This document shows, piece after piece, positions 9,691-39,730 of a stretch of 39,730 nucleotides of DNA. The translations under genes and the position numbers were made by a program. The stretch comes from an uncultured Zetaproteobacteria bacterium (GTDB taxonomy: Bacteria > Pseudomonadota > Zetaproteobacteria > Mariprofundales > Mariprofundaceae), in the NCBI GenBank assembly GCA_964414875.1, contig CAYPXU010000002.1, forward strand, positions 1 to 39,730, given 5' to 3'. Position 1 is the first letter of the stretch, and the number at the start of each line of letters is the position of its first letter. Under the pieces are notes generated by a model. It saw nothing but the letters and a program-made list of their open reading frames with translations, made no database searches and was not told the DNA's origin.

Positions 9691-11316
9691 CTAAGCACGT
9701 TTTAACCATAACATCGTAACATCATCATCCGCTGCCAGCCTGCCAAAATCATTAAGTTCTTCCTGCAAGCCTTTTGATAGAAGCGCAACATCTGAGTTGC
9801 CATGTTCTGCAAACCACTGTTTCACCCTCGCTTCACCAAACATTTCATCTGAATCGTAATCACGTGCCTCTGTAATGCCATCACTATACACCAACAAGGT
9901 ATCACCCTTTTCAAACATATACTCAGATACTTCAAACTTTAAATCCGTCTGTAAACCCAAGGGTGGTGATGATGCTTCAAATGCCTCAATCTTTCCATTC
10001 CTACACAACAATGCAGGAACATGCCCTGCATTCAACCACAACAAAGAATTCGATTCAGGCTGAAGTTTCGCTAAAAACAGTGTCACAAAACGCCCGCCAG
10101 TCAGCGTTTCACAGAGTGTATTATTAACATACTCCACGGCCTTTTCAAAAGGCAGCTCTAAATGTGCCAGTGCATGCAACATAGCCCGTAAATTTGCCAC
10201 TGTCAGCGCGGCGGGATAACCCTTGCCTGCAACATCCGCAACGACCAACCATACACGACCATCAGGCAATACAATATGATCATAATAATCACCACCCACA
10301 GCCTCGCAGCTTTGTTCAAAACCTAATATCTGATAATTTTTAATTTCAGGAACACCTACAGGCAGCATAGCATGGTGGATTTCTTCAGCAATTTCCAGCC
10401 CGTGTTTTAACTCTTCACGCTCTCTCAAACCTGCAAAAGCGGTATTCATTCCTTTCGCCAACGTGCCAAACTCATCATCACTCAATACTGCCACACGACC
10501 ATCATACTGACCTTGCCGCATGCGCTCTAAACCAATAGAAAAACTTGCCATCACCTGCTTTAAAATCTTACCTACCGTAAAAACAAGCCATGCTCCTGCC
10601 AATATCAATAAAACAAATAACACACCCGCTTGTAATAAAATAAATTGTTGTTCAGATGCAGTATCTGTGCCCAAAATAAGATAAACAAAGAACGCCAAAA
10701 TACTGGCTGGCAAAGCACTGGTAATTAAAAAGATAACCCATGGCCGACGTGATATTTTATTCCAGTCTAATATACTACCATAGCCATCATCCAAGGTATG
10801 TAGAAATAATCCTTTTCCAGCCAGTTCCGCACGCAAACGAACGCTATATGCCAAGGTTATAGACAATGCCATGCTCGGTGCAAGCACTCCTGCGCCATAC
10901 AATAATGACAACGCCAAAGCAATAGACATGCGTGGTGTTAAAAGCGTTCCACTTACCGCTGCTCCAACATTCAACACCACAATAAGGTAAATAGCACAGC
11001 AGAAACCAGCCATAAAAAAGCCTTTGAAAGCCCGCTTGGGAAGCAATGATATTCCTTGCTCTAAATATTTATGCGATCTTCGCGTTGATTTATCCAACCA
11101 TGACTGCGCTTCTTTAAGCGGATCATAAATCCAAACTGCTGCACCTACAAACACCACTGAAAATACAGCCAAATCAGTCAATGACAACCACCATGGTATG
11201 GCAATAGATGCACTATCACCAAACATCCGCATCACCCATTGGACAGCAATAAAAACCACCAAAAGTGGCCATAAAACAACAATAAAACGCCATATAGAGA
11301 GTTTATATTCTAACAT
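9691..11316 (-). CDS. Membrane-bound HAMP domain / PP2C-type (SpoIIE family) serine phosphatase
   Basis: 541 aa. Polytopic hydrophobic N-terminal half, a HAMP-like linker (DDEFGTLAKGMNTAFAGLRE), then a SpoIIE/PP2C core (GGDYYD, VADVAGKGYPAAL, YSDGITEA, DDVTML). Confidence 0.8.
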   Translation of the reverse strand: MLEYKLSIWRFIVVLWPLLVVFIAVQWVMRMFGDSASIAIPWWLSLTDLAVFSVVFVGAAVWIYDPLKEAQSWLDKSTRRSHKYLEQGISLLPKRAFKGFFMAGFCCAIYLIVVLNVGAAVSGTLLTPRMSIALALSLLYGAGVLAPSMALSITLAYSVRLRAELAGKGLFLHTLDDGYGSILDWNKISRRPWVIFLITSALPASILAFFVYLILGTDTASEQQFILLQAGVLFVLLILAGAWLVFTVGKILKQVMASFSIGLERMRQGQYDGRVAVLSDDEFGTLAKGMNTAFAGLREREELKHGLEIAEEIHHAMLPVGVPEIKNYQILGFEQSCEAVGGDYYDHIVLPDGRVWLVVADVAGKGYPAALTVANLRAMLHALAHLELPFEKAVEYVNNTLCETLTGGRFVTLFLAKLQPESNSLLWLNAGHVPALLCRNGKIEAFEASSPPLGLQTDLKFEVSEYMFEKGDTLLVYSDGITEARDYDSDEMFGEARVKQWFAEHGNSDVALLSKGLQEELNDFGRLAADDDVTMLWLKRA

Positions 11317-13062: not shown

Positions 13063-15222
13063 TCATGTTTCAATTTTCCACGCAGGAATACCTGCATCTG
13101 ATTTCTGTCCGACTTCCAACAAACGTGCTTCAAGCGTGAAATCAGCACTCTGAAGTAAAATTTCTTTGCATCCGAGGTGAGGCTCTATATGCGCCTGTGT
13201 TTGCAGTGCAATACCCTGTTTCCAAGCCAGATTTAATGTATGCTTGCCAGACTGCAACCACTGATGACCATGCCATATACGATCATAATCACTTTGCACT
13301 CCAGCCCCCATAGGATAAAATAAACGACTCAATATATATTGTTTCCATGTCACAGGTAAATATTGCATAGAAGGTCTATCTTGCCATGCCATATCGCCTT
13401 CATTGAGAGGGGTCAATCCGACAGCCAATAACCAAGCATCAAGAAAAGCATCTTTAGGGCCTTCACGATTATAAAAGCTCAATAACGAATCCTGCTGGGT
13501 AAATGCAACACTTGCACCAGAATCTGAACACAGACGTAATTGCCCCGTAAGATTCAAGCTAACATAAAGCTTACACGTGTGATGAACCCCTTGGCTTGTC
13601 ACTTCATAACGCATTTCCCTTCCAACATTAAGTTGCAAACTGCTTGCTAAAGTTTTATCTACTTTAGGCATGCATACCTTTTCCCCTTCTTTAGGGCGGG
13701 CAAAAAGCTTGAATTGATTGCCCTCTTGCCCTTGAACCTGATGCAATACCGTTGTTAAATGAAAAGGATGTGTTGCGCCACCCAAGACATCCCCATATTG
13801 CACATGCAGATGTAAATGAGGTTGCGGAGAACGCCCAGAACTACCACACAAAGCAAGACTTTGTCCTGGGTGAACATACGCACCAATTTCAATATCAATG
13901 CTTGCTTGTTTAAGATGCGCCAGTAGCACATACAAACCATTATTCAAACGAATGAGAATATGGTTTCCCCAGTTGTTTTCGCTATCAACTTCACCAGGTT
14001 TATTATCTGGTAGAGAATCGAGTTTCTTAACCACAAAGCCTGCGACTGGTGAAAGCACGGGTAAAGCAAAACAAAAGTAATCTTCCAGCGTAGCACCATC
14101 GGTACGAAAGCTTTTTCCTTCATCAACAATATAAAAGTCCAAAGCATGCTGCCAAGGTTCTTGGTGCGTATGTACGCCATTAAAACCTTGGTATATCTCC
14201 CACTCACCATAAAATGGTGGTAATACTGGAACACTAGAAAACTCACCATTTCTGGCAATGGCAAGACGTGAGTTCTCAAAACTTTTTTCAGGTAACTCTG
14301 GTGATTCAAGGGTGAGCTGTAACTGACTTGATAAAGGACGCTGCGTGAGTGCCAATAACACAATCAACGATGTTGCCAAAAATGGCAAAGCCATCACAGG
14401 CAGACCATATACCAGCATAAAAGTTTCTGATGCAGCGGTAATCAGAGCGGCAATGACTGCCCCGACCATCGCTAATATAAAACTGTGTTTGCTGGGTATA
14501 GTAAAAACACCACCCAAAGCCATCGCCACCAAGATAAAGTTAAAACCATTCCATGCGACCAAATCAGGGTGCGGACTACCTGAAAGAAAACTATAAACAC
14601 TAAAGCCACAAATAAAACCACTAATCGCCAGCCAAGCCAAATAGCGTGAGGTTATCAATATACCTAAAAAAAGTAATAAGCCTGCAACAGGATGCGGGGT
14701 AAAAAATGCCGATCCCAGAGCCGTTAAAAATTGATCAATCCATGCATTGATCAATGTTGAACTGGGTACTAATGGCAATAAATAACGCTCTAATGTGCCA
14801 TAACTATGCGCTGCTAAAGTCACCGTTAGTGCAACAATCACAAAAGGCAAACTCAAGACAGGCACATGCCCCAAACGCCACATCACATCACGCATTGCCA
14901 CGGTTGCAAACACTGCCAAAACAGCCCCTAGCGTAATCAATACCGCAAGGTGCATATTCAGTTGATAATATGCACCCAACGAAAGACCTACCAACAAGCT
15001 GTTATACACATGTAAACCACTTTCAAGATGATTAAACTTGAGTAATTTAGCCGTTACGATACCAACCACTGCCGCCAATATGCCCGCAAGACCTGTATTG
15101 GGAAACCATAACGTTGCCAGTAAAAACAATCCGCCAATCCAAGGTTTTTCAGCGAACAAAATGGAGCCATAAGCTCGCAGCAAACCTTGGATTGGGTTTT
15201 GTAATAATTTATTGCTAAACAA
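13063..15222 (-). CDS. Fusion protein: urea-transporter (UT) family membrane domain + M23/LytM metallopeptidase domain + C-terminal domain of unknown function
   Basis: 719 aa with an apparent TTG start. Residues ~1-300 are polytopic and UT-like (LRAYGSILFAEKPWIGGLFLLATL...). The middle part carries M23 hallmarks (NHILIRLNNGLYVLLAHL, GQSLALCGSSGRSPQPHLHLHV). About 200 C-terminal residues are unassigned. Confidence 0.7.
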   Translation of the reverse strand: MFSNKLLQNPIQGLLRAYGSILFAEKPWIGGLFLLATLWFPNTGLAGILAAVVGIVTAKLLKFNHLESGLHVYNSLLVGLSLGAYYQLNMHLAVLITLGAVLAVFATVAMRDVMWRLGHVPVLSLPFVIVALTVTLAAHSYGTLERYLLPLVPSSTLINAWIDQFLTALGSAFFTPHPVAGLLLFLGILITSRYLAWLAISGFICGFSVYSFLSGSPHPDLVAWNGFNFILVAMALGGVFTIPSKHSFILAMVGAVIAALITAASETFMLVYGLPVMALPFLATSLIVLLALTQRPLSSQLQLTLESPELPEKSFENSRLAIARNGEFSSVPVLPPFYGEWEIYQGFNGVHTHQEPWQHALDFYIVDEGKSFRTDGATLEDYFCFALPVLSPVAGFVVKKLDSLPDNKPGEVDSENNWGNHILIRLNNGLYVLLAHLKQASIDIEIGAYVHPGQSLALCGSSGRSPQPHLHLHVQYGDVLGGATHPFHLTTVLHQVQGQEGNQFKLFARPKEGEKVCMPKVDKTLASSLQLNVGREMRYEVTSQGVHHTCKLYVSLNLTGQLRLCSDSGASVAFTQQDSLLSFYNREGPKDAFLDAWLLAVGLTPLNEGDMAWQDRPSMQYLPVTWKQYILSRLFYPMGAGVQSDYDRIWHGHQWLQSGKHTLNLAWKQGIALQTQAHIEPHLGCKEILLQSADFTLEARLLEVGQKSDAGIPAWKIET

Positions 15223-15230
15223 ACTTACGC

Positions 15231-16610
15231 CTATCGTTTCGTTACGCTGGATAAGTGCTCAGGAATGACTTCTTGAGCTGTCATTACCTGCAAATCTTCA
15301 GCATGACGCACAACAGACACCGAACTATCCTCATGAACCATGATAATATTTGGACGATACTCAATAAATTGCATCCATTGGGTATTATTATACGCACCAA
15401 CATGTCCAAAAATAAGTGAATCACCTACATTCATGGGCGGTAACATCGCTGATTGACGCATAATATCGATATTCATACACAACGGACCATAAAGCACCGT
15501 ATCTTCTGCCACACCATCCAAAGGACGCGTTGGTGTAATCGGGTGATTATACCAAAAGCCTGTAAATAATAAATTCACGCCCGCATCAATCACCACAGAA
15601 CGCCGACCATCAGGCATACGTTTATTGGCAATCACCGATGTAACAAGAATTTCAGCATCATCCACCATCGCACGACCACTTTCCAAAATAAGTCGAGGTC
15701 TGCCTTTGCCCTGCATATCACGCTCACGTGTGGCATCATTTAAGGCAGTGCAAATAGCTTCAGCATATTGATCAATACTCGGTACCACTTGTTCAGGCGG
15801 TAAATAGCTGCCTTGCAATGAATTCATCGATGCAAAACCACCACCAATATCAATACTTTCAATATGGCAGCCTGTTTGTGATTCAACATCATTCATAAAT
15901 GCACACATAATATGAATTTGTGCCGAATAAGCCCTTGGATCAAGTACAAATGTGCCTAAATGACTGTGTAAACCTGCCAAATTCAGATGCTTGCTCTCAC
16001 CCAAAATACGCGCTGCATCCATGGCTTGACCCGATTCAATATTAAAGCCAAAGCGGCTCCATGGCTCGGTGTAACCTGTATCAAAATTAAGTCGCATCGT
16101 CACATCAACTTGTTTACCCGCTTCTTTGGCAATATCTTCTAACACATACAACTCATCAAGATTATCCAGATGAATGCGCGCACCTTCAGCAACCACACGT
16201 TCAAGAATGAATCGCTGTTTATGGGGGCCATTGAATAAAATATGTTTGGCTGGAACACCCAATGAGCGAGCCTTTTCATATTCAAATGCAGAGACTACCT
16301 CAGCCCAAGCACCTTCTTGATGAAAGGTTGTGCAAACAGCGCCCAAATAGTTGGTTTTATAAGACCAGCTATAGGTCACAGAAGGATAGCGTGTTTCAAA
16401 TGCACGCAATAATTTACGCACATTGTTTCGCAAGCGTTTTTCAGAAAGAATAAACAATGGTGAACCGTATTTCTCTAATAATGGCGCAATCGCAACACCT
16501 TCAAAACTATCTTGATGGTGGCTATGGCTGACACTACCAAATTTATTCATGGAGCCCATTTGATGCGGTGTCAGCGTTGGTTTACTCCAAACTTGTTTTG
16601 TTTGCGTCAT
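15231..16610 (-). CDS. Type III-fold PLP-dependent decarboxylase (ornithine/diaminopimelate/arginine decarboxylase family)
   Basis: 459 aa. PLP-lysine context SWSYKTNY. GGGF phosphate-binding motif (IDIGGGFAS). Conserved C-terminal GPLCMNID and GAY motifs. The start overlaps the upstream stop (ATGA). Confidence 0.8.
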   Translation of the reverse strand: MTQTKQVWSKPTLTPHQMGSMNKFGSVSHSHHQDSFEGVAIAPLLEKYGSPLFILSEKRLRNNVRKLLRAFETRYPSVTYSWSYKTNYLGAVCTTFHQEGAWAEVVSAFEYEKARSLGVPAKHILFNGPHKQRFILERVVAEGARIHLDNLDELYVLEDIAKEAGKQVDVTMRLNFDTGYTEPWSRFGFNIESGQAMDAARILGESKHLNLAGLHSHLGTFVLDPRAYSAQIHIMCAFMNDVESQTGCHIESIDIGGGFASMNSLQGSYLPPEQVVPSIDQYAEAICTALNDATRERDMQGKGRPRLILESGRAMVDDAEILVTSVIANKRMPDGRRSVVIDAGVNLLFTGFWYNHPITPTRPLDGVAEDTVLYGPLCMNIDIMRQSAMLPPMNVGDSLIFGHVGAYNNTQWMQFIEYRPNIIMVHEDSSVSVVRHAEDLQVMTAQEVIPEHLSSVTKR

Positions 16611-17752
16611 GATTTCTCTCCATGTGATGAATTGTCGCTTGCGACAAGATGCCTACCCCTTGCGGGTATACTTTTTTTCACTATTGCCTTCGGCGCATAG
16701 CTGCCATACATCGACATGGACTCAAAAGTTCCCAAATCAATGACCGTTTCTTGGGCATAACGAATCATCATCATACCCGTTTTTGCAGGCGTAAATTCCG
16801 GCTTTTTATCCAGTATTAAATCCACCAATCCAGCAGGCAGATTACATCCCGACTCAGCTGCCAAATAAATCCAAGCAGGAAAACGAGGGTTTATTTCAAT
16901 AAGCAGATAATTACCATCAGGCTCTTTAAGCATCTCCACTTCTAAAGGGCCTGCCCATTGTAATTCCTTGGCTAATTTCTCCGCATCTTCACGCAGTTGT
17001 TTGTTTTCAACAGTTACACAAGACCAAGCTTTACCTTTATCAGTAACCGCTTGTTTACGCATCATCACGGAGCCTAAAAGCTTGCCTTTGCCATCACCGA
17101 TGGCTGTTAAATTAACCTCATGCCCTTCCACATAACGTTGCACCAATACTGGGTAACCCCAACTGGCGGCAATCTGACGAAAAGCCTGCGCACCTTCATC
17201 CGCACTGTGTACGACAGTAGCATCATAGAAAATACCTTTTACAACCATCGGATATTTCCAGCCATCATCATGGCATTGATAAAAGAAATTCGCGCTGGTG
17301 ATGGTTTTAGTTTCAGGGTAACGGATACCTGCTTTTTTGGACAACTCACCCAGTCGATCCTTATTGCGGTCGCGTAATTGCGCCATATCAGGAATCAACA
17401 TGCGAATACCCAAACTTTCAAACTCATGGTGCAAGCGACTAAAACTTAATAATTCAGCATCCAAGCATGGAATCAATACATCAACCTGCTCTTGCTCTTG
17501 AATATATTGCATGCGCTCCATCAATTGTTGTTCGCCTGCAGATGGGTAGGGCAGTAAATAGGAAACATCGCAAATTTCTTCTAAATAGAGCCCTGCATCC
17601 AACACATCGTAACCCAAGCCAATAATGCGAATATTATCGCCATGTGCCAATCGCAGACAACGCGCCACAGCCAAACCAGGGCCTGGATTATCAGGTTTCG
17701 CATTCATGCCTGTAACAGCAATGGTTAACATTCTTTTATCTGACTTACTCAT
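16607..17752 (-). CDS. ATP-grasp family ligase
   Basis: 381 aa. ATP-grasp pattern: YPMVVKG, VLVQRYVEGHEVNL, LLIEINPRFPAW. The start overlaps the upstream stop (ATGA). Confidence 0.8.
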   Translation of the reverse strand: MSKSDKRMLTIAVTGMNAKPDNPGPGLAVARCLRLAHGDNIRIIGLGYDVLDAGLYLEEICDVSYLLPYPSAGEQQLMERMQYIQEQEQVDVLIPCLDAELLSFSRLHHEFESLGIRMLIPDMAQLRDRNKDRLGELSKKAGIRYPETKTITSANFFYQCHDDGWKYPMVVKGIFYDATVVHSADEGAQAFRQIAASWGYPVLVQRYVEGHEVNLTAIGDGKGKLLGSVMMRKQAVTDKGKAWSCVTVENKQLREDAEKLAKELQWAGPLEVEMLKEPDGNYLLIEINPRFPAWIYLAAESGCNLPAGLVDLILDKKPEFTPAKTGMMMIRYAQETVIDLGTFESMSMYGSYAPKAIVKKSIPARGRHLVASDNSSHGEKS

Positions 17753-18579
17753 ACAAGAAATTTGCGCAACTGCGCTGAGAACTCAGTGATATCACGCTCT
17801 GCATCACTGCGATTCACATCAAAATCGGATTCAATGCCTGCAAGCAAATCAGCAGCACTGCTATGATTTTGTAAAAAACGAAGCACATACAACCCTACAG
17901 TATTAGCGGTAAAACTTCGCCCACTTTCAGGGTCAAATACAAAACCACTATCATTTAATGCCAAGCGTTGAAGAATCTCTTGTGAAGGAAAGGTCTCCAT
18001 TTTATTTTGGTCTTTTTCCCAAGGTAATTTGGTCATAAGTAGCTCCTTGTGTTGATTGCGTTGCGGGTTTTCAGGGTTCCAAGCGCGATAAATAGATTGT
18101 AATAAATGATCGGTAAGGGCATCAACTGTTAAAAGTGATGAATCCATTTTTACAAGTTCAATATGCGTATGTAAAAAACGCCTGAATTGCTCACGATAAT
18201 ATTCGAGTTGTTGGCGTAAATAGGGTGTATCCATAGGGTTACAACATAAAAAACTTAAGGACACACGATCATTTAATAGTTTTTGTATTAGTTGATGTAA
18301 ACCACGCTCGCCAATAGCCGTTATCTTGAGAGTTATGCGCAGTTGTTCACCACGGCTATCCAACCAAGCCGCCATCATACTTTCTTTCGAAGAAAATAGA
18401 CGAAACAATACACCATCAGAAATCCCCGATTCTCGGGATACTTTTTTCGTTGTTAAAAAGGCTAACTGATCTTTATGAGCAATGTCATCAATCGCCTGTA
18501 GCACTTGTTGATGACGTTTTTTAGCCGTTTCACTTTTGAATGATATGTCAGACATGTGGCGTATCAAAAATGAAAGCAT
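17749..18579 (-). CDS. TetR-family HTH regulator fused to a C-terminal PqqD-like (RRE-type peptide-binding) domain
   Basis: 276 aa. The N-terminus has the TetR HTH (TTKKVSRESGISDGVLFRLFSSKESMM). The C-terminal ~85 aa (LNDSGFVFDPESGRSFTANTVGLYVLRFL...DFDVNRSDAERDITEFSAQL) looks PqqD-like. An alternative start is the ATG at 18555 (MSDISFK). Confidence 0.65.
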   Translation of the reverse strand: MLSFLIRHMSDISFKSETAKKRHQQVLQAIDDIAHKDQLAFLTTKKVSRESGISDGVLFRLFSSKESMMAAWLDSRGEQLRITLKITAIGERGLHQLIQKLLNDRVSLSFLCCNPMDTPYLRQQLEYYREQFRRFLHTHIELVKMDSSLLTVDALTDHLLQSIYRAWNPENPQRNQHKELLMTKLPWEKDQNKMETFPSQEILQRLALNDSGFVFDPESGRSFTANTVGLYVLRFLQNHSSAADLLAGIESDFDVNRSDAERDITEFSAQLRKFLV

Positions 18580-30821: not shown

Positions 30822-31717
30822 GGGTCAGGTCTTGCAATCAAGCATTTCCATTCTTTTGACAGCTCGACTCACAGTAGAATAATGCACACCAAAGTGCGCT
30901 GCAATTTCATTCATACGAAATTCGCCCTCTAAAAAAGCACGCGCCATAGCATCATTTCGATGTTCCCCTTCACTCGCATAGTCATCCAAACTTTTTCCTA
31001 ATGACTTCCACTGCACCCTTGGTATCTCAGATAAATCATTTGATATATTTACCAAAGATTTAACCCTCTCAACAAAAGCATCACCGCCAAGATAAACCTG
31101 TTGGTTCAACCCGCCCCACACACAACCCGCTTTCATTCCATTCGCAACAAACTGGACATATACCTCTTGGTTGTTCGAATATGAAAATTGCGCTAACAAC
31201 CACCGAACACTTAACCAGCTCGGGCACACTACTACCCCTGCCGTTGCCGCATAACTACTCCATAACCACTGTCCCGCCTCATCTACCATCTTGGCACGCA
31301 CAGGATTCAACACAACATAACGACATAATTCCAGTAAATACACATCACGCTCGACCAAAATAGACTTATAACGCCCCTGAAACACATGACCCACACGCTG
31401 ATGAACACGGTTAAATCGCTGCGTATACACACCATTAAGTTGCCGCATACCACTACAAAGGTTTGACTGCGGCGTTTCTATCATCAAATGGTAGTGATTA
31501 TCCATCAAGCAATAAGCATGACACAACCAACCAAAACGCTTAATGACATCTTCAAGTGTCTTGAGAAATAATTCCCGATCTACATCATCTAGAAAAATAT
31601 TAGCCTGAGCATTACCTCGCGAGGTAATATGATAAATTGCATTCGGATATTCTATTCGTAATGGGCGTGACATTCCCCCACACTAGAGAAAGAATACTTG
31701 ATTGCAAGACCTGACCC
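30822..31717. mobile_element. Y1-transposase unit bounded by perfect 21-bp inverted repeats
   Basis: gggtcaggtcttgcaatcaag (30822-30842) is the exact reverse complement of cttgattgcaagacctgaccc (31697-31717). The left repeat covers the last codons and the stop of the transposase ORF. Short extra hairpins sit just outside each repeat (ccctt-gaca-aaggg at 30811-30824; cttg-g-caag at 31724-31732). Confidence 0.7.
30825..31673 (-). CDS. IS200-like Y1 (HUH) tyrosine transposase / RAYT-like protein with C-terminal DnaA-C-like HTH
   Basis: 282 aa. The N-terminus YHITSRGN, the HUH motif (DNHYHLMIE) and the catalytic Tyr context (VFQGRYKSILV) are intact. C-terminal HTH reads EIAAHFGVHYSTVSRAVKRME. 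Confidence 0.8.
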   Translation of the reverse strand: MSRPLRIEYPNAIYHITSRGNAQANIFLDDVDRELFLKTLEDVIKRFGWLCHAYCLMDNHYHLMIETPQSNLCSGMRQLNGVYTQRFNRVHQRVGHVFQGRYKSILVERDVYLLELCRYVVLNPVRAKMVDEAGQWLWSSYAATAGVVVCPSWLSVRWLLAQFSYSNNQEVYVQFVANGMKAGCVWGGLNQQVYLGGDAFVERVKSLVNISNDLSEIPRVQWKSLGKSLDDYASEGEHRNDAMARAFLEGEFRMNEIAAHFGVHYSTVSRAVKRMEMLDCKT

Positions 31718-31794: not shown

Positions 31795-32211
31795 TTAAGA
31801 ACTTTTTTTAGCAAAGGGTTTGTTTATCTCGGCCCAGTATACACAGAGAATATCTAGACAGTTTTGATGATTGATATCCTTGACCACATAACTGTTTGCT
31901 CCCAGTTCATAGCTATTGGCAATATCCTGCTTGTCATCGGAAGTGGAAAACATCACGACAGGCACATGCTTGGTTTTTTCATTACTTCGTATCCATTGCA
32001 ATACCTGCAAGCCATCTACCTGGGGCATTTTTAAGTCCAACAAAATCATGCTTGGCAATGCATTCTTATCCATAGCATTCAACTGTTCAATGGCATTCGC
32101 TCCACCGCTGGATTCAATCATGCGAAGCCCAATAGCACTCTTGCTTGCTCGCCGTTTGATCAAAATACGCTCATCTATATTATCATCGACGAACATTATA
32201 GTTTTAGTCAT
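31795..32211 (-). CDS. Single-domain response regulator (receiver only)
   Basis: 138 aa. Has the DD pair (FVDDN), phospho-acceptor Asp context ILLDLKMP, conserved S/T (MFSTS) and Lys (YVVK). No output domain. Confidence 0.85.
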   Translation of the reverse strand: MTKTIMFVDDNIDERILIKRRASKSAIGLRMIESSGGANAIEQLNAMDKNALPSMILLDLKMPQVDGLQVLQWIRSNEKTKHVPVVMFSTSDDKQDIANSYELGANSYVVKDINHQNCLDILCVYWAEINKPFAKKSS

Positions 32212-33313
32212 AACTAACCCCTCCGTGGGTTGTAAAGAAAAAACATGCGCCTTGGTCTATGGCAGATTCCACCCAAATTTTTCCGCCATGCTTGCTGATA
32301 ATGCGTTCCACCGTAGCTAAGCCAACGCCATTGCCTTCAAACTCATCCTCACTATGCAAGCGGCTGAATGGCTTGAATAGTTTGTCCGCCAGTTTCATAT
32401 CAAAGCCTACGCCATTATCACGCACATAAAAAAATGATTCATCAGCCTGCTTACCTGACCCAATGGTGATTTCAGGTTGTTCTACATTATGACTATATTT
32501 CCATGCATTATCAATCAGGTTATCCAAAACTACGCGCATCAATGACTCATCAGCCGCCTGTGCCAGCAGTTCTTCTTCAAGATTGAAGATTACGCTGTGC
32601 TGCGGATTATGTTCGCATAATTCATCAACAATGCTTTGTGCAATGGACGATAAATTTACTTCATGAAGCTTTAACTCAGCCCTGCTTGAGCGGGCGAAAT
32701 CGAGCAAGTCCTTAATTATATCACCCATACGGGCGGCGGAACGCCTAATTCTTGAGAGCATGAACTGTGCATCTTTAGGTAAATCGGCTTCATAATCTTC
32801 TCCCAAGGCTTCACAATAATTACAAATATGGCGCAATGGTGCGCGCAAATCATGTGAGGCGGAATAGGAAAAACTCTCCAGCGTCTCATTGCTCAAACGC
32901 AATGCTCGAGCTTGTTCACGCACTTCATCTTCTGCTTTTTTAATGCGCAAGCCCACCCGAACTTTGGTCAATAGTAATTCATCATCAATTGGTTTGGTGA
33001 GATAGTCCAGTGCTCCGGTTTCCAGACCGCGAATGACCCGATCTTGGTCACGGTAGCGAGCGGATAGAAAAATGACTGGTATATCTTTCACCCGATCAAT
33101 TTTCAACAGCTTCTCCAGCGTTTCATAACCATCAATGCCTGGCATCTGAACATCCAGAAGAATCAGATCAGGCAGCTTGGCTGCGGCTATACTCAGACAC
33201 TCTTCACCCGTTTCAGCAGTAATCATATCGTAATCATCTTCCAGAATTTGCTCCACCAAATCCATATTGTCCGGATTATCATCGACAATCAGAATCAAGG
33301 CACGTTCACGCAT
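32204..33313 (-). CDS. Receiver-histidine kinase hybrid (REC-HisKA-HATPase)
   Basis: 369 aa. N-terminal REC (LIVDDNPDN, LILLDVQMPGIDG, KP). H-box SASHDLRAPL. N/G boxes (DNLIDNAWKY, DNGVGF, GNGVGLA). 8-nt overlaps with both neighbouring genes. Confidence 0.85.
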   Translation of the reverse strand: MRERALILIVDDNPDNMDLVEQILEDDYDMITAETGEECLSIAAAKLPDLILLDVQMPGIDGYETLEKLLKIDRVKDIPVIFLSARYRDQDRVIRGLETGALDYLTKPIDDELLLTKVRVGLRIKKAEDEVREQARALRLSNETLESFSYSASHDLRAPLRHICNYCEALGEDYEADLPKDAQFMLSRIRRSAARMGDIIKDLLDFARSSRAELKLHEVNLSSIAQSIVDELCEHNPQHSVIFNLEEELLAQAADESLMRVVLDNLIDNAWKYSHNVEQPEITIGSGKQADESFFYVRDNGVGFDMKLADKLFKPFSRLHSEDEFEGNGVGLATVERIISKHGGKIWVESAIDQGACFFFTTHGGVSYD

Positions 33314-33692
33314 GGTTTACCTCCAGATAATAGCTAATGCGCTGCAACAATAAATCATCATCAATAGGCTTGGTTAGGTAAGCATCGCAACCCGCTTCAA
33401 GGCAGGTGCGTTCATCATTGGCCATAGCATGGGCAGTCAGCGCTAATACCGGAATATCTTTTAAGGCATCGTTCTGTTTGATGAGGCGGGTAGCATCCAA
33501 CCCATTCATGTCGGGCAGGGATACATCCATCAAAATAAGATCAATCCCACCAGCCTGCAAACGTTCAAGCCCCGATTTTGCACGATCAAAACCTTCAACG
33601 ACATAATCTTCATCTTCGAGAATCTCCGTCACCAGATCCATATTGTCCGGATTATCCTCGATGACCATAATCACATGCTTCACTACACTCAT
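33306..33692 (-). CDS. Single-domain response regulator (receiver only)
   Basis: 128 aa. Motifs VIEDNPDN, LILMDVSLPDMNG, LTAH and YLTKP. No output domain. Confidence 0.85.
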   Translation of the reverse strand: MSVVKHVIMVIEDNPDNMDLVTEILEDEDYVVEGFDRAKSGLERLQAGGIDLILMDVSLPDMNGLDATRLIKQNDALKDIPVLALTAHAMANDERTCLEAGCDAYLTKPIDDDLLLQRISYYLEVNHA

Positions 33693-35644
33693 AGTTTCAA
33701 CTTACCAATAGTTTTTGCCACCATTTTATTCAAATCCATACCGCCCTTGACCATCACCTGCGAGGCATGCGATTCCAGCCAGTCGATTTCATCACGACTC
33801 AATATTTTGGCCGTACTGACGATCAATGGAATATTTTTCAGACTTTCATCTTCGCGCATCAAGCGAATCACTTCAAAGCCATTCATATTAGGCATCATCA
33901 AGTCCAGTACAATCATATCCGGTTGCTTTACACGCATTTGCGCCATCGCATCAACACCATCCACAGCCAGACGCACATCAATATGTGCATCTTCAAACAC
34001 CTGCTGCATAAGCTCGCGCACACCAGCATCATCATCCACCACCAGCACTTCACGCGTTTCATTGAGCAGACGGGCATACTTGATCGATTGCAATAAATTC
34101 TCCGGCACGATGGGCTTCTCCAAATAGTCTACTGCACCGAGTTTCATACCCAATGCCTTATTATCCATCATCGTAGCCATCAACACTGGGATTTCTTTGG
34201 TGGCTGGGTCGGCTTTTAATTCCTGCAAGACAGACCACCCATCTTTATGCGGCATTTGCACATCCAGTGTGATAGCTGTGGGTTGCTGCTCTTTAGCGAT
34301 TTTCAGTCCATCATCACCATTATTCGCACACAACACCTGATAACCGTCATCGGATAAACATTGCTGAAACAGCTCCAACACATCAGGATTATCATCAATG
34401 CAAAGGATCACTGCCTTGCCAGCTACCGCGTTGTCCAACTCAGGCAAGGGGAGTTCAACCGCATCCTCAATGACATCTGCCCCCGGCTGCTGTTTCGGCA
34501 GGCAGACGGTAAATGTCGAGCCCTCGCCATAGACACTGCTGACTTCGACACGTCCGCCCATCAATTCGACAAAGTTCTTGGTGATATTCAATCCCAAACC
34601 AGTACCGCCATAAGCGCGGGTATTGCTGCCATCCGCCTGTCGGAAGGCTTCAAAGATAAACTGCAAATTCTCCGCCTGCATGCCAATACCGCTATCTTCC
34701 ACAGCAATCATGACCCCATCACCATCCATGCTTGCATCATCCAGCAATGCAGCGCGGATGGTTACACTACCTTCAGCCGTAAATTTCACAGCATTACTGA
34801 CTAAATTGATCAACACCTGTTTTAGCCGTACCCGATCCACATAGAGTGAGAGAGGCTGTTGCGGCAATTCCATATTGAAGGCAATACCTTTTTCATGCCA
34901 CAAGGAGTTGGTTAAATCACGCACCTCGTTGATCAGATCATGCATTGCTACATGTTCTGGATATAGCTCCATGCGACCCGCTTCAACTTTACTAATATCG
35001 AGAAGGTCATTGATCAGACCGAGCAGGTGGTGGGCATTGCGTTCCACGGTATGTAGGTTCTTCAATTGTCGTGCATCGAGTTTATCGCTGGCTTTCTTGA
35101 TGACGCGGCCCGTAAAGCCGATAATCGAATTCATCGGCGTGCGCAATTCATGCGACATATTAGCCAGAAACTCCGATTTTAGGCGGGTGGATTCTTCCAA
35201 TTCCCTGTTTTTTAAGTTTAAATTATCAGCCTGCTGTTGCAAATCAAGCATCATGGCTGCTTTTGATGGTGCTTCAAGCTGCTCTCGCTCAACCTGCCAG
35301 TTTAATGCGGGTAGTGCTGGCAATCGCCATGAATAGAGTCGCTGCCCATAACTGTCGGTTCCTGCCTTGTCACACAAGTAGCTTAGATTTGCTTCATGAT
35401 TCACGGTGGATGGATCGCCTTGCTGTTGCATTTCGACATAGAGGGTCAGACAAGGTGCGCGATGCAGCTTGCCGATACGAAGCAAAAGCTCATGACCCTG
35501 CTGTGCCAGTTCACAGCCCAGAATAGCCACACGATCTGCGACGATGGATGATAAACCTACAGCTCGGGCAAACAGCGGCAAACGCTGACGCAAATTCAGG
35601 CGTGCTTCTTCGTCATGGGTTTGAATGCGTGCGACTTCTCTCAT
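33689..35644 (-). CDS. Soluble hybrid histidine kinase: novel N-terminal domain - coiled coil - HisKA - HATPase - REC - REC
   Basis: Start at ATG 35644 (GGAGA RBS; ATGA overlap with the upstream stop). H-box NMSHELRTPMNSIIGF. N/G boxes (NLVSNAVKFT, DSGIGM, GTGLGL). Two C-terminal receivers (ILCIDDNPD...ITLDVQMPHKDG and VLVVDDDAG...IVLDLMMPNMNG). No TM segments. Confidence 0.85.
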   Translation of the reverse strand: MREVARIQTHDEEARLNLRQRLPLFARAVGLSSIVADRVAILGCELAQQGHELLLRIGKLHRAPCLTLYVEMQQQGDPSTVNHEANLSYLCDKAGTDSYGQRLYSWRLPALPALNWQVEREQLEAPSKAAMMLDLQQQADNLNLKNRELEESTRLKSEFLANMSHELRTPMNSIIGFTGRVIKKASDKLDARQLKNLHTVERNAHHLLGLINDLLDISKVEAGRMELYPEHVAMHDLINEVRDLTNSLWHEKGIAFNMELPQQPLSLYVDRVRLKQVLINLVSNAVKFTAEGSVTIRAALLDDASMDGDGVMIAVEDSGIGMQAENLQFIFEAFRQADGSNTRAYGGTGLGLNITKNFVELMGGRVEVSSVYGEGSTFTVCLPKQQPGADVIEDAVELPLPELDNAVAGKAVILCIDDNPDVLELFQQCLSDDGYQVLCANNGDDGLKIAKEQQPTAITLDVQMPHKDGWSVLQELKADPATKEIPVLMATMMDNKALGMKLGAVDYLEKPIVPENLLQSIKYARLLNETREVLVVDDDAGVRELMQQVFEDAHIDVRLAVDGVDAMAQMRVKQPDMIVLDLMMPNMNGFEVIRLMREDESLKNIPLIVSTAKILSRDEIDWLESHASQVMVKGGMDLNKMVAKTIGKLKL

Positions 35645-36303
35645 GGTTTCTCCTGGCTTGATAATAATGTTAATGCTTGCCGCTTGCCCCAATAGCGTAG
35701 CACAATACAACTGGCATCATCACGCCCATCCGCCAATTCACGCATGATGTTCAATGATACCGTAGTCATAGAGTGGTCATGTAGCAACAGCCGTTGCCAG
35801 GCTTGTGATGGCGTGCTGCGACGAATACCATCACTGTGCGCGACTAGCCATTGACCCGGCTCGCATTGCCTGTGTTGCAATCGCGGGGTGGGCATGTGAT
35901 AACCGATAATACCCTGTTGTTCGTTACTGCGATTGACTTGCGCCAGCCCGCTGTGAAAACAACACAGCGATACATCACCGATATGAATAAAATCCACACC
36001 ACCATCAGCATGCAATACAAATGCCACCGCCACCATACCGCGTGAGCCTTTCAAGCGTGCATGCAAGGCATGAAACAACGCCACCAGATCAATTTCATCC
36101 GATGTTTCGATCATGCCACGGGCAACGCCAATGGCCTGTTGCTGAATGCGCTCTGCTTCCACCCCATGTCCCGCACCATCACACAACAAGCCAAACAACC
36201 CCTGCGTATGCCAACACGTCCAGACACCATCGCCGCAATGCGGTGCATGACCAAGCATTGGCTGGCGCTGACTGGCTAGTTGTGCGAAGTTTTTAACTTG
36301 CAT
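35641..36303 (-). CDS. rsbX: RsbX-like PP2C-type feedback phosphatase
   Basis: 220 aa. CGDG...LLCDGAGHG, VAVAFVL, IGDVS, HSDGI and DDASCIVL motifs follow the RsbX/SpoIIE pattern. Positioned directly after the RsbT homologue. An alternative start is M16 at 36258. Confidence 0.7.
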   Translation of the reverse strand: MQVKNFAQLASQRQPMLGHAPHCGDGVWTCWHTQGLFGLLCDGAGHGVEAERIQQQAIGVARGMIETSDEIDLVALFHALHARLKGSRGMVAVAFVLHADGGVDFIHIGDVSLCCFHSGLAQVNRSNEQQGIIGYHMPTPRLQHRQCEPGQWLVAHSDGIRRSTPSQAWQRLLLHDHSMTTVSLNIMRELADGRDDASCIVLRYWGKRQALTLLSSQEKP

Positions 36304-36677
36304 TGCGCCTGCACCCTCAAACCGCCTTGCGACATATTTTCAATTTTCATTGCATCCATAATGCGTTGCACCGCAGGTAAGCCCACGCCCAGCCCTTTGC
36401 CGCCAGAATAGCCCTCTTGCATGGCTAACTCGATATCTACAATGCCTGGCCCTTGATCACTGCTCTCGATACTTATTTTCCGGACGACCGGATCGAATTT
36501 CAGGTGAATAAAACCGCCTCGCGCATAACGCACCAGATTGGTGCCCAATTCCGATGTCACTGTGCTAATCAACATATATTCCGATTCCCTGCAATGGGCT
36601 TCCAGCATCTGACGTGTCAACAGAGTCACCCGCATCACATCAGCTTCATTATTGATCTGAATACGCCGCTCAACCAC
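36276..36677 (-). CDS. rsbT: RsbT-like serine/threonine switch kinase (GHKL, anti-sigma-factor-type)
   Basis: 133 aa with a GTG start. The pattern I.I..EADV..V....R...E......L.STVTSELGTNLVRYA, then DQGPGI and GLGVGLPAVQR, matches RsbT/SpoIIAB-type kinases. Confidence 0.8.
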   Translation of the reverse strand: MVERRIQINNEADVMRVTLLTRQMLEAHCRESEYMLISTVTSELGTNLVRYARGGFIHLKFDPVVRKISIESSDQGPGIVDIELAMQEGYSGGKGLGVGLPAVQRIMDAMKIENMSQGGLRVQAQCKLKTSHN

Positions 36678-36737
36678 GCATGAACCGATACAGAATGAAA
36701 TACGCTATAGTTTTCATGTTAATACATTCACCCAGAT

Positions 36738-37097
36738 TCATACGCATTTCAGCATCCGAATGGCGCGCGGCACAGCTTTGGCAAAACAGAGTCTGTCGGT
36801 GTTGATATCCAGATGCACCAGTGCCGTAATCAGACCCGCCTGCATACCAGTGACAGCCGTTGGCACGCCCATGATTTGAATCATGCTCAGCATCTTATCC
36901 AACGCCTGTAGCAAGGCAGTTTCGGTGACACGCAATTGCTGCAAATTGATTACCACCGCAACCACATCATCAGATTCCAGTCGTTGCAACACAGTGGCCG
37001 ATAGCGCCATCAAATCATCGCTGCTGATACGGGCTGGAATATCGACCACCAGAGCGCCCTGCAAGCGGCTTAACAGCCCTTCGTGATGCATACTCAC
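36738..37097 (-). CDS. rsbS: RsbS-like single STAS-domain stressosome scaffold protein
   Basis: 119 aa. Alignable by eye to B. subtilis RsbS. Thr in VTETALLQAL occupies the position of phosphorylatable Ser59 (MIDSFIAKVL). GTG at 37097 or ATG at 37091; only 2 nt after the RsbR stop. Confidence 0.8.
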   Translation of the reverse strand: MSMHHEGLLSRLQGALVVDIPARISSDDLMALSATVLQRLESDDVVAVVINLQQLRVTETALLQALDKMLSMIQIMGVPTAVTGMQAGLITALVHLDINTDRLCFAKAVPRAIRMLKCV

Positions 37098-37099
37098 AA

Positions 37100-37987
37100 T
37101 TATATATCCATATTCTGCGCGTTAATTTCTTTAAGTGTTGCCAGTGCCATGCGCAGCCCTTTGCGCAAGGTCGGGGCACTGTTCACGCCGCCAAGATCCA
37201 GCCCCAGATTTGCCATAGCTTGCGCTACATGCGAGGTAACACCAGAGACAATGCAGTGGCAGCCCATCATGCTTACCGCCTTGGTGATTTTCAGCAAATG
37301 ATTGGCGACGGCGCTATCGATGCTAGCCACGCCCTGAATATCGAGCAAAATAATCTCCGAATCGGTGCGATCCAGTGCTTCCAGCATGGCATCCATGATT
37401 TCCTGCGAGCGCGCCGAATCGACTGTGCCGACAATCGGAATCATCAGGATATCCTGCCATATCTGCATCACCGGCGTGGACATCGCACTCATCGCACTCA
37501 TCTGCTCGGCAAGCAGCGATTTTTGCATCTCGGTAAAACATTCAAAGGTGTACAGACCGAGCGAATCCACCAGCTTGTTGGTCAACATCAGGCTGGAAAA
37601 CAGCGCATCGTTATCATTCTCATATTTCTGTTGCAGAGCATCCATCACAGCCTCTTTCAGCGAGAAAATAAAAGTGGCTGTTTCCGACGGGCTAAAGCCC
37701 AGCATGACATACCGTTCAGAGACCTTTTTAAGATTGGCTTTTACCGCATCAAATGCTTCGGCTTCAATATCATTCATATTACCGGCAGATACCGCCAGGT
37801 TGATGCTGACCAGCGTATCAGACGACATTTGTTGCATTTCTTCCTTAGAAATTAAATCGCTGCGCAAGTTGCTTGCTGTTGCCTGCTGTTTGATCCATAA
37901 TTTAAGGATTAGATCACTGTCTTTATTGAATAAGTCAGCTATAATTTGCATTTTCGCCTCTTGTACCTCCTGTTTTTTCTGGCTCAT
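37100..37987 (-). CDS. rsbR: RsbR-like stressosome sensor protein (N-terminal helical sensor domain + C-terminal STAS)
   Basis: 295 aa. The C-terminal half aligns by eye to B. subtilis RsbRA (IPIVGTVDSARSQEIM.. vs MPLVGTIDTERAKRIM..; LLDIQGVASIDSAVANHLL vs LIDITGVPVVDTMVAHHII). Ser residues sit at both RsbRA phospho-Thr positions. The N-terminal ~160 aa contain no His. Confidence 0.85.
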   Translation of the reverse strand: MSQKKQEVQEAKMQIIADLFNKDSDLILKLWIKQQATASNLRSDLISKEEMQQMSSDTLVSINLAVSAGNMNDIEAEAFDAVKANLKKVSERYVMLGFSPSETATFIFSLKEAVMDALQQKYENDNDALFSSLMLTNKLVDSLGLYTFECFTEMQKSLLAEQMSAMSAMSTPVMQIWQDILMIPIVGTVDSARSQEIMDAMLEALDRTDSEIILLDIQGVASIDSAVANHLLKITKAVSMMGCHCIVSGVTSHVAQAMANLGLDLGGVNSAPTLRKGLRMALATLKEINAQNMDI

Positions 37988-39576
37988 GATGGCTCTCCTG
38001 TTAATTTTTTAATTTCGTTGAAAATCGTATTTGGAGAAAAGGGTTTGACCTGCACATGGATATTCTCCATACCATCCACAAGTTCCAGCGTGTGATGTAC
38101 ATCGTAGCCAGAGATTAAAACGATCGGGATCGTGGATATGGCGCGGATTTTCCTCGCTGCTTCCGGGCCGCCCATATTTGGCATTGATACATCCAGTACC
38201 ACCACATCATAATACTCAGGCAACTTTTGAAACTGCTCCCATGCCAATAAACCATCTTCAAAAGCATCTACATTACTGCCTTCATCCTCAAAAATAGAGC
38301 AAAAGACTTCGCGGATCATCTCTTCATCATCTGCAAACAACACATGCATGGGTTGCAGACCGGTGCCTGCCTTTGGCTCAAGTTGCGTGGAATCAGACTG
38401 TATTGCATCGCTCATGTTGATTTTGGGGAATAACATTCTGAAACTGGTTAATGTTTTTGAACAACTCCCACATAGCATCGGGCATGGTTCACGCGTGCAT
38501 TCAATAAACCCGTGATGGGTTATCATCGAACCATAGACCATAGGCAACCCCAATCCTGTTCCAGCGTTAACGCTCTTGGTGGTATAAAATGGCTCAAATA
38601 TATGCCCTTTGATTTCCTCACTGACGCCAGAGCCGTTATCCATTATATACAGAGCAACCCAGTTATCGCTTTGTGCGACCGTATCTGGCAATCCGGTCGG
38701 GTCAGGTTGGATTAGCAATGAAATACATGGACACGCTACATCGGCAACTGCATCGCGAGCATTGTTGATTAAGTTCAATAACATTTGCTGCAATTGAACA
38801 ATATCGGCAGAAATATAAATTAACTGTTCTGGCGGATGCCAATTCAGCCTGATAGTTTCAGGTACGGACATGCGCAATAATGAGATATTTTCTGTAATAA
38901 AAGCCCCCAGTTCAATGGGCTCCATTTTGACAATGCCTTTGCGGGCAAAGGCTAGTAACTGCTTTACCAGTTGACTAGCTCGATCACATAGTACATCCAT
39001 TTGATCAACACTCTCAATCAATTTGGCATGGTTAGGATATTCAGATTTCAACTTCCACTGCATACCCATGAGTGCGGTAAGAATATTATTGAAATTATGC
39101 GCAACGCCACCGGCCAGTGTACCAACTGCTTCCATCTTTTGCGCTTCGATAAAGCGTTCGTGTTCCGATTCCTGTTCGCGTCGGGCTTCGACATAACCCA
39201 TTTCCCGACGCAATACATCGCCTAGCTTGGAGAGCTCATCCTTGCGAATAAAGTCACGCACCCCACCACGAATAAAGCGGGATATTTCATCAAGTTCCAC
39301 CATGCCCGATATAATCACCACCGACACTGGTGTGGGACTGAATTTATCAATTGTTTTAATCGCATCATGCACCGATAGTTCCGGCATGCGCACATCACAA
39401 AGAACAATATCCCAGACATGATGCTCTAGCGCAGACTGCAGCTGCGCTATCGATTCAACACGCTGACTATGAATCTGAAACCCTTCTTTTTTGATAACCC
39501 GTTGTAACGCAAAGGCATCATCATTGGAATCATCAATGATTAAAACATTTAGAGCCTGTTTCGATAGTTTGTTCAT
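37984..39576 (-). CDS. Hybrid histidine kinase REC-HisKA-HATPase-REC
   Basis: I prefer the ATG at 39576 (GGGAGAG RBS) over 39594. N-terminal REC (LIIDDSNDD, IVLCDVRMP). H-box GVAHNFNNILTAL. N/G boxes (NLINNARDA, DNGSGV, GTGLGL). C-terminal REC (VLFADDEE, VVLDVSMPNMGG, KPF). The stop overlaps the rsbR start (ATGA). Confidence 0.85.
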   Translation of the reverse strand: MNKLSKQALNVLIIDDSNDDAFALQRVIKKEGFQIHSQRVESIAQLQSALEHHVWDIVLCDVRMPELSVHDAIKTIDKFSPTPVSVVIISGMVELDEISRFIRGGVRDFIRKDELSKLGDVLRREMGYVEARREQESEHERFIEAQKMEAVGTLAGGVAHNFNNILTALMGMQWKLKSEYPNHAKLIESVDQMDVLCDRASQLVKQLLAFARKGIVKMEPIELGAFITENISLLRMSVPETIRLNWHPPEQLIYISADIVQLQQMLLNLINNARDAVADVACPCISLLIQPDPTGLPDTVAQSDNWVALYIMDNGSGVSEEIKGHIFEPFYTTKSVNAGTGLGLPMVYGSMITHHGFIECTREPCPMLCGSCSKTLTSFRMLFPKINMSDAIQSDSTQLEPKAGTGLQPMHVLFADDEEMIREVFCSIFEDEGSNVDAFEDGLLAWEQFQKLPEYYDVVVLDVSMPNMGGPEAARKIRAISTIPIVLISGYDVHHTLELVDGMENIHVQVKPFSPNTIFNEIKKLTGEPS

Positions 39577-39730
39577 ACCTACTCTCCCAAACATTTAAGT
39601 TACTTTAGCATCAGTATTGCAATTGCGCCATTAGTTTTAAAAGGTATTGCTCGGTCGATAAGTGTACGGAACCTACATTGCCTCGGTGTTTCCGGCCTTG
39701 TCCGTGGACCAGTACTCCAACGTGTGGTTC

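Follow-up and report, generated by a model that had tools for sequence, protein, structure and literature searches.

How a stressosome passes its signal to the two-component proteins encoded next to it is the question raised by a nine-gene operon on contig CAYPXU010000002.1 of an uncultured, iron-oxidising and marine Zetaproteobacteria bacterium (Mariprofundaceae). The window analysed in this study is this complete contig of 39,730 bp, taken from a metagenome-assembled genome (MAG), and its Ffh protein groups at 90% identity with Mariprofundaceae proteins. Stressosomes, which have a pseudo-icosahedral RsbR/RsbS core of ~1.5-1.8 MDa that sequesters RsbT, are found widely. Stressosome output is understood only for the SigB route of Bacillus and Listeria and for effectors of the RsbU_N type; in most Gram-negative loci, including that of Vibrio vulnificus, which has been approached by genetics and cryo-EM, the signal path to the adjacent two-component proteins is unresolved. 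In the operon, nine open reading frames (ORFs; 31795-39576, designated g1 to g9) are co-oriented on the minus strand and encode, by Pfam and NCBIfam, REC-HK-REC, RsbR, RsbS, RsbT, RsbX, X-HK-REC-REC, REC, REC-HK and REC, where HK is a histidine kinase and X an N-terminal domain. Our analysis of sequence and predicted structure suggests that X, a domain resembling the switch kinase RsbT, probably couples the stressosome to the two-component proteins. The stressosome proteins and the two parts of g6 are as follows.

37100..37987, minus strand: g2, RsbR, 295 amino acids, with an RsbRD_N sensor and a C-terminal STAS domain
36738..37097, minus strand: g3, RsbS, 119 amino acids, a divergent single STAS domain (phmmer against PDB, and profile)
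36276..36677, minus strand: g4, RsbT, a GHKL Ser/Thr switch kinase, 133 amino acids (Pfam HATPase_c_2)
35641..36303, minus strand: g5, RsbX, a single-domain PP2C feedback phosphatase, 220 amino acids (Pfam SpoIIE)
35260..35644, minus strand: g6 N-terminal domain, residues 1 to about 128, predicted RsbT/RsbW-like GHKL fold without ATP motifs (AlphaFold2, Foldseek, profiles)
33689..35259, minus strand: remainder of g6, a helical linker followed by HisKA, HATPase_c, REC and REC (Pfam)

The g6 protein consists of 651 amino acids and starts with the ATG at 35644. An earlier note on this DNA had described it as HK-REC-REC; those domains are present (Pfam HisKA 4.3e-18, HATPase_c 3e-29 and two Response_reg domains 3e-44), but an additional N-terminal domain of about 125 amino acids was overlooked, although it tells most about the mechanism. 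No Pfam or NCBIfam model matches this N-domain. Since the domain spans cover nearly all residues, a hidden domain of about 100 amino acids has no room elsewhere than at the g6 N-terminus. For structure prediction and the search of representative proteins, a two-sequence alignment was used in place of the loci-derived sequences. The AlphaFold2 model (predicted local distance difference test, pLDDT, 81; predicted template modelling score, pTM, 0.75) shows the order b-a-a-b-b-a-b-b-a of strands and helices, and all 15 of its 15 best PDB matches in Foldseek were RsbW, UsfX or SpoIIAB (probability ~1, TM-score 0.5-0.64). In the distant loci L008 and L009 the kinase encoded after rsbX starts with a colinear domain ('MIELGKI...VEARNKI...'). 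An independent model of this wider family (pLDDT 88.5, pTM 0.83) again gave RsbW, SpoIIAB and UsfX as 13 of 13 top matches (E 7.8e-5, TM-score up to 0.78, root-mean-square deviation 2.9 Å).

Comparison of profiles was carried out with alignments of the zeta N-domain (A3), RsbT (A5), RsbS (A6) and the wider N-domain family (A8). In hhalign the wider family matched RsbT over 108 columns (Prob 89.8, E 1.8e-6) and the zeta N-domain colinearly from residue 1 (E 4.6e-5), and RsbT ORFs and N-domain ORFs match each other's hidden Markov models (HMMs) reciprocally. The mixed alignment A7, used for a profile search, gave nine matches, of which all but one were short wider-family fragments. In the alignment of RsbT with the wider family a gap faces the RsbT G1 box and lid segment; the N-domain has lost the G1 box and the ATP lid, has no G2 glycine motif and does not conserve the N-box asparagine. 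Because this asparagine is not conserved and the glycine boxes are gone, the N-domain is predicted not to bind ATP and to be non-catalytic. The domain shares with RsbW, SpoIIAB, UsfX and RsbT the predicted fold, the order of secondary structure and a profile similarity to RsbT over the full length, but differs from them in the loss of the ATP motifs and in being fused to a histidine kinase instead of free-standing. Taken from alignments and models, the N-domain family appears to comprise RsbT-homologous domains of about 130-145 amino acids that have lost the ATP motifs and are encoded directly after rsbT or rsbX. Within this family the zeta form is conserved among members of the zeta clade. 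A word-indexed search returned one protein and a HMMER search three matches among 1.84e9 representative proteins, so the zeta form is clade-restricted in sequence; it occurs in 3 of 185,579 species-representative genomes, all three Zetaproteobacteria.

RsbU_N was considered as the coupling domain of g6 and was rejected, as PF08673 gives no match even at E<=10 and the model has five beta-strands. RsbU_N is an all-helical four-helix bundle, whereas the prediction for the g6 N-domain is an alpha/beta GHKL fold akin to that of RsbT and RsbW.

A metagenome scan for the N-domain with alignment A10, in which neighbouring genes were typed by local HMMs, recovered 19 loci. In 18 of these the N-domain ORF lies immediately 3' of rsbT (8 loci, without rsbX) or of rsbX (10 loci), and rsbR-rsbS lie upstream if the contig extends that far; the 19th is a partial linker match only. 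The fusion partners found were HisKA-HATPase, PAS-HK, PAS-PAS-HK-REC-REC and also, in L028, a PP2C phosphatase and, in P0146, a domain like HD-GYP, and this modularity parallels that of the RsbU_N coupling domain (PMC12143880). In the cultured Vibrio aquimaris (L032), tblastn of plasmid and chromid records revealed the same arrangement, in the order PAS3-STAS RsbR, RsbS, RsbT, RsbX, N-domain-HisKA-HATPase-REC-REC-Hpt and REC-HD-GYP, and the kinase carries the N-domain at 78 bits. Co-transcription alone does not prove coupling, and the stressosome and two-component genes might be mere neighbours in one transcript, with no biochemical link between their products. We regard this as highly improbable, since the N-domain protein keeps its place directly after rsbT or rsbX in the 18 loci and in Vibrio whatever effector it carries, and deletions of RSTX and of D1 in V. 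vulnificus give similar phenotypes (Cutugno 2023, PMC10014275). The loci follow a common grammar of RST(X), an N-domain effector (usually a kinase), a small REC and a REC-X protein, in which X is usually a c-di-GMP enzyme. The zeta operon departs from this grammar in that X is the histidine kinase g8, an Rcp1-type receiver (g9) is added, Hpt is missing and g1 is placed upstream.

We consider it slightly better than an even bet that g6 reads the state of the stressosome through its N-terminal RsbT-like pseudokinase domain and feeds g7 and g8 and then g9. A cue would act on the N-domain of RsbR, RsbT would phosphorylate the threonine of RsbS and the Ser/Thr sites of RsbR, and RsbX would reverse this. 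The RsbT-like domain of g6 would bind the STAS core in its unphosphorylated state, in the manner of RsbT, and would be released by phosphorylation; alternatively, it may pair with released RsbT. In either case the change would run via the short helical linker into the DHp helix of g6 (His165) and shift the balance of kinase and phosphatase activity. The g6 kinase would then phosphorylate in trans, without an Hpt, both the g8 receiver and g7, the latter serving as sink or modulator, while its own two RECs would be internal sinks or regulators. Transfer to g7 and to the g8 REC is suggested because these two receivers are most similar to the first REC of g6. Phosphorylated g8 would turn on its own kinase core, which would phosphorylate g9 and possibly the g1 receivers, and phosphorylated g9 may act on an unlinked target by protein-protein contact. 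Single-domain receivers of the Rcp type generally act by protein contact.

Several points weigh against this reading. The Foldseek E-values of the g6 N-domain model are modest (3.6e-3), and direct hhalign comparison of the zeta N-domain (A3) with RsbT (A5) gave no link (Prob 0.2); the link between the two is transitive and structural, not direct. Receiver similarity is the sole guide to the proposed phosphotransfer routes. It is uncommon for a hybrid kinase with two receivers to have no Hpt, and one may be encoded at an unlinked site. Furthermore, no interaction of VvRsbT with VvD1 was detected in V. vulnificus (Heinz 2022, PMC9237108), which speaks against the variant with RsbT pairing, not against the STAS-binding variant. 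The same result counts against catalytic coupling, in which released RsbT would phosphorylate Ser/Thr residues of g6 or bind its linker, the N-domain being a dimerisation or scaffold module. Coupling of this kind has been suggested for D1 of V. vulnificus and shown for the GGDEF protein MtG of Moorella, and the RsbT active site is intact in the zeta operon. Moreover, the anti-sigma GHKL kinases SpoIIAB and RsbW are dimers, so the RsbT-like domain could pair with RsbT. We judge catalytic coupling unlikely, however, as it does not account for the conservation, across phyla, of a degenerate RsbT copy in this place instead of some other dimerisation domain.

Should g6 read the stressosome through its N-domain, the coupling of stressosome to kinase reduces to a simple binding experiment, and the partner-switching logic of STAS and GHKL pairing would be reused to gate histidine kinases. 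The locus and its relatives point to a testable adaptor, an RsbT paralogue without an ATP site fused to an effector. More tentatively, and with somewhat less than an even chance in our estimation, the N-domain may represent a widespread, hitherto unrecognised RsbT-derived pseudokinase family that acts as a general adaptor for stressosomes without RsbU or RsbU_N, a 'reader' to the RsbT 'writer', serving histidine kinases, PP2C phosphatases and c-di-GMP enzymes and including the D1-type kinases of Vibrio. If true, this would answer how Gram-negative stressosomes transmit their signal. Most proteins encoded downstream of stressosome genes, including V. vulnificus D1, are without the RsbT-binding RsbU_N, and for these the transmission step is unknown (Heinz 2022, PMC9237108). 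RsbU_N with its linker is an RsbT-responsive module present on RsbU, MtG and some kinases (eLife 2025, PMC12143880). The outputs carrying RsbU_N (B. subtilis RsbU, Moorella thermoacetica MtG and some proteobacterial histidine kinases) share with the N-domain proteins the layout of an N-terminal domain, a helical linker and interchangeable effectors (PP2C, histidine kinase and c-di-GMP enzymes), as well as the position right after the stressosome genes.

Some of the N-domain loci showed further variation. In L028 (857-2101) the N-domain is fused to SpoIIE/PP2C directly after rsbX, and this protein is an RsbU analogue with the N-domain in place of RsbU_N. In L013-L020 a short RsbR (ORF of about 147 amino acids), RsbS and RsbT are followed directly by the N-domain kinase with no rsbX gene; the feedback phosphatase is dispensable in this lineage or encoded elsewhere. 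In L009 (13862-15209) a KaiB-family protein and a PAS-HisKA_2 kinase come after the N-domain kinase and a REC, and this stressosome module, too, shows no obvious effector domain.

Apart from g6, the operon encodes four two-component proteins.

37984..39576, minus strand: g1, hybrid kinase REC-HisKA-HATPase_c-REC, 530 amino acids (Pfam)
33306..33692, minus strand: g7, single-domain receiver, 128 amino acids (Pfam Response_reg 3.7e-30)
32204..33313, minus strand: g8, REC-HisKA-HATPase_c kinase, 369 amino acids (Pfam)
31795..32211, minus strand: g9, terminal single-domain receiver of the Rcp1/bacteriophytochrome-response-regulator type, 138 amino acids (Pfam Response_reg 9.6e-19)

The earlier count of three kinase cores and seven receivers was confirmed, with all catalytic and phospho-acceptor residues intact: the kinases g1, g6 and g8 retain their H, N and G boxes and all seven receivers the acidic pair, the phospho-Asp, Thr/Ser and Lys. 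The first REC of g6, g7 and the g8 REC are mutually 33-40% identical; g7 shows 39% identity to the g8 REC, 33% to the first REC of g6 and about 20% to the other RECs. The g8 protein, with its H, N and G boxes intact, matches in NCBIfam the C-terminal part of LvrA-like proteins (273 bits, under the cut-off) and is predicted to be a kinase gated by its own receiver. The best PDB matches of g9 were 5ic5 (9e-22), 5brj, 6xvu, RcpA (1k68) and Rcp1 (1i3c), and no phytochrome partner for it was found within the window. In this respect g8 is like the REC-HK part of Leptospira LvrA, and g9 like the response regulators of bacteriophytochrome operons; unlike the bacteriophytochrome and LvrA/LvrB cascades, however, the operon has no photosensor and a stressosome as input, and the NCBIfam scores lie far under the family cut-offs.

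Searches of the nine proteins with Pfam and NCBIfam (E<=0.01) found no Hpt, DNA-binding, GGDEF, EAL or HD-GYP domain, and within the operon the same databases identified no RsbU, RsbV, RsbW or SigB, the rest of the genome being outside the view of this analysis. The earlier claim that the locus is free of RsbU/V/W, a sigma factor, Hpt and effector domains stands for the operon only; an unlinked Hpt or regulator may be encoded elsewhere in the genome. A canonical multistep phosphorelay proceeds from HK-REC through Hpt to a response regulator, whereas PF01627 matches none of the nine zeta proteins; L008 and L032 have an Hpt. By Pfam and NCBIfam g6 likewise has no C-terminal Hpt, unlike its V. 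aquimaris homologue. With three kinases and seven receivers but neither Hpt nor effector, the operon offers a compact natural case for branched phosphotransfer and phosphate sinks.

The nine-gene order and its overlap pattern recur in the independent metagenome and MAG contigs L001-L006 and L010-L012, with RsbR identities of 87% (L001-L003, L010), 76% (L004/L012) and 64% (L005/L006), and the named contigs among them are Mariprofundus or Zetaproteobacteria MAGs. As order and junctions are kept in all of these, the arrangement is not due to chance. In L001 the terminal REC is followed by unrelated genes (AAA_14, HNH and glyS/glyQ), so the operon ends at g9. The gene before g1 in L005 encodes a glycosyltransferase; given these flanks, and with the ORF upstream of the operon in the window unrelated, the nine genes form the conserved block. 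This bears on the alternative of an ordinary stressosome-controlled multistep phosphorelay, the Hpt and effector of which are encoded elsewhere and seem absent only as an artefact of viewing a single contig of 39.7 kb. Such proteins do adjoin the homologous kinase in other loci (Hpt and REC-GGDEF in L008, REC-GAF-HD-GYP in L015 and L017) and in V. aquimaris, and the window is the whole contig. The Hpt-free set, on the other hand, is kept in several independent contigs (RsbR 64-87%) and ends at g9, and the REC-X slot holds a REC-kinase, suggesting replacement rather than loss; we therefore regard this alternative as somewhat unlikely.

The g1 kinase overlaps the rsbR start with its stop codon (ATGA). 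Pfam identified in g1 two Response_reg domains, HATPase_c and a weak HisKA (19.9 bits), and its best NCBIfam match was a CckA-like core (221 bits, under the cut-off). The motifs AHNFNN (H-box), NNARD (N-box) and DNGSG/GTGLGL (G-boxes) are present, and both g1 RECs retain DD, D57, S87 and K109. Among the relatives, g1 was found upstream of rsbR in L004, L005 and L006 as well. Being first in the operon, overlapping rsbR and carrying an N-terminal input receiver, g1 could be the entry point of a reverse or parallel flow in which the two-component proteins set the expression or activity of the stressosome, and its occurrence only in the zeta clade fits this. Nothing in the operon, however, lets a receiver act on RsbR, RsbS, RsbT or RsbX, and the broadly conserved order of RST(X), N-domain kinase and receivers has no g1 equivalent, which makes a g1 entry improbable.

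Comparison with the Vibrio-type locus (rsbRSTX followed by D1 and D2) revealed a shared order of R-S-T-X and then a hybrid kinase with two receivers, and a shared lack of RsbU/V/W/SigB. The RsbR sensor is a non-haem RsbRD_N domain in the zeta operon, where V. vulnificus has a haem globin and V. aquimaris three PAS domains; Hpt is fused to the kinase in V. aquimaris and missing from that of the zeta operon; a REC-kinase and an Rcp-like REC take the place of REC-HD-GYP; and the upstream REC-HK-REC kinase is extra. While V. vulnificus D2 consists of a receiver and a c-di-GMP phosphodiesterase, Pfam and NCBIfam identified no c-di-GMP enzyme among the nine zeta proteins. The locus stands out less than the earlier note suggested, since rsbRSTX with a phosphorelay of HisKA and REC proteins was already catalogued, being among eleven types of module downstream of rsbRSTX that include 'phosphorelays of HisKA and REC domain proteins' (Heinz 2022, PMC9237108). 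The zeta operon belongs to a known class, the stressosomes with two-component output, as a variant specific to its clade, and is not a new system. What the locus adds is the unannotated RsbT-like domain, a clue to how stressosomes and two-component proteins talk to each other. It is also the first described stressosome locus in the iron-oxidising Zetaproteobacteria, as no earlier one was found in the literature searched. That literature had no relevant mention of a pseudokinase in stressosomes, of a kinase domain like RsbT or of stressosomes in Zetaproteobacteria; the Pané-Farré papers of 2005 and 2017 were outside the search, and a prior mention is possible. The rsbRSTX module followed by two-component genes was reportedly known already from the 2005 work of Pané-Farré.

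A complete RsbR-S-T-X set, as proposed earlier, is encoded by the operon, each member being placed by Pfam or by PDB and profile matches. The assignment to the STAS and RsbT families held above the Pfam cut-offs for g2 and g4; g3 stayed below the STAS cut-off and was placed as RsbS by PDB and profile matches. For RsbR, Pfam gave RsbRD_N at 64.7 bits (1.4e-17) and STAS at 50.7 bits (1.6e-13), both above the cut-offs. Its best PDB match was V. vulnificus RsbR (7O0I_B, 2.6e-38) over the linker and STAS domain, and it also matches Listeria RsbR (2e-25). The RsbR motifs IVGTVDS and GVASIDSAV line up with phospho-sites in RsbR proteins of solved structure, which we take to be the equivalents of T171/T205 of B. 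subtilis. No histidine occurs in residues 1-230 of RsbR, the first being at about 231, which bears out the earlier description of a histidine-free sensor. A haem-globin RsbR of the O2-sensing V. vulnificus type was rejected because of the missing sensor histidine and the match to the non-haem RsbRD_N; RsbR is a predicted non-haem sensor of globin type (RsbRD_N).

The single RsbS sequence scored under the Pfam STAS gathering score (15.4 versus 22.6 bits, E 0.016). Its best PDB matches with phmmer were RsbS proteins (6jhk at 1.3e-4, 6qcm and 7o0i_a), and profile A6, built from g3 and its orthologues, matches B. subtilis RsbS at 1.5e-24. In this alignment threonine occupies the site equivalent to Ser59 of B. 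subtilis (D-S-F), and serine is found there in L005. RsbT matches HATPase_c_2 at 33.3 bits (5.5e-8, cut-off 27.4), with the N-box residues E43/N47 and the motifs DQGPG (G1) and GLGVGL (G2) kept in alignment A5. RsbX matches SpoIIE at 38.7 bits (1.4e-9, cut-off 25); its sole PDB match was 3ZT9 (7.7e-9), with the metal motifs CGD, DGxGHG, HSDG and RDD aligned.

Recomputation of the junctions by script gave -4 nucleotides (nt) for g1/g2 (ATGA), +2 for g2/g3, +60 for g3/g4, -28 for g4/g5 (the overlap of rsbX with rsbT), -4 for g5/g6 and g6/g7, and -8 for g7/g8 and g8/g9. These values and the coordinates are identical to those given before, and the proposal of a single co-oriented, overlapping unit finds support in the synteny conserved among Zetaproteobacteria relatives. 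The 60-nt gap between rsbS and rsbT (36678-36737) is without a consensus promoter in a consensus scan; it is not conserved, its counterpart measuring 147 nt in L001 and being an 8-nt overlap in L004. One further feature lies upstream of g1.

39577..39672, minus strand: presumed promoter region, 96 nt of intergenic leader that separate g1 from the stop codon of an unrelated ORF upstream

A GGGAGAG motif resembling a Shine-Dalgarno sequence 5' of g1 favours the g1 start at 39576. The leader has no consensus sigma-70 site, and consensus promoter and terminator scans gave no sites in excess of shuffled expectation; neither the leader nor the rsbS-rsbT gap matches Rfam, and no riboswitch was found in them. 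The upstream ORF (39673-39730, minus strand) ends in ...NHTLEYWSTDKAGNTEAM* at 39673; the contig begins inside it, and it is unrelated to the operon. This ending resembles the C-terminal repeat of chitobiase/Ig-like surface proteins.

Downstream of g9, 121 nt 3' of it and on the same strand, 30825-31673 encodes a protein like a REP-associated tyrosine transposase (Y1_Tnp) with a C-terminal helix-turn-helix. A similar Y1_Tnp and Bac_DnaA_C gene is found directly upstream of rsbR in L008 (261-1232). The transposase-like gene was rejected as the output of the operon, as it is not present in the closest relative L001, and probably lies outside the system. A 541-amino-acid protein encoded at 9691-11316 (minus strand), 20 kb from the operon, has hydrophobic N-terminal segments, a weak HAMP and a C-terminal SpoIIE/PP2C domain (161.7 bits) and looks, by its domains, like a partner-switching phosphatase of the RsbU/RsbP type; no RsbV or RsbW gene was found near it. 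At 13063-15222 (minus strand) an ORF of 719 amino acids shows an unusual fusion of a urea transporter (UT, residues 12-292) and Peptidase_M23 (residues 408-476). Three overlapping genes at 15231-18579 (minus strand) encode an Orn/DAP/Arg decarboxylase-like protein, an ATPgrasp_Ter protein and a third protein that ends in a PqqD-like domain, and look like a small cluster for peptide or amine modification.

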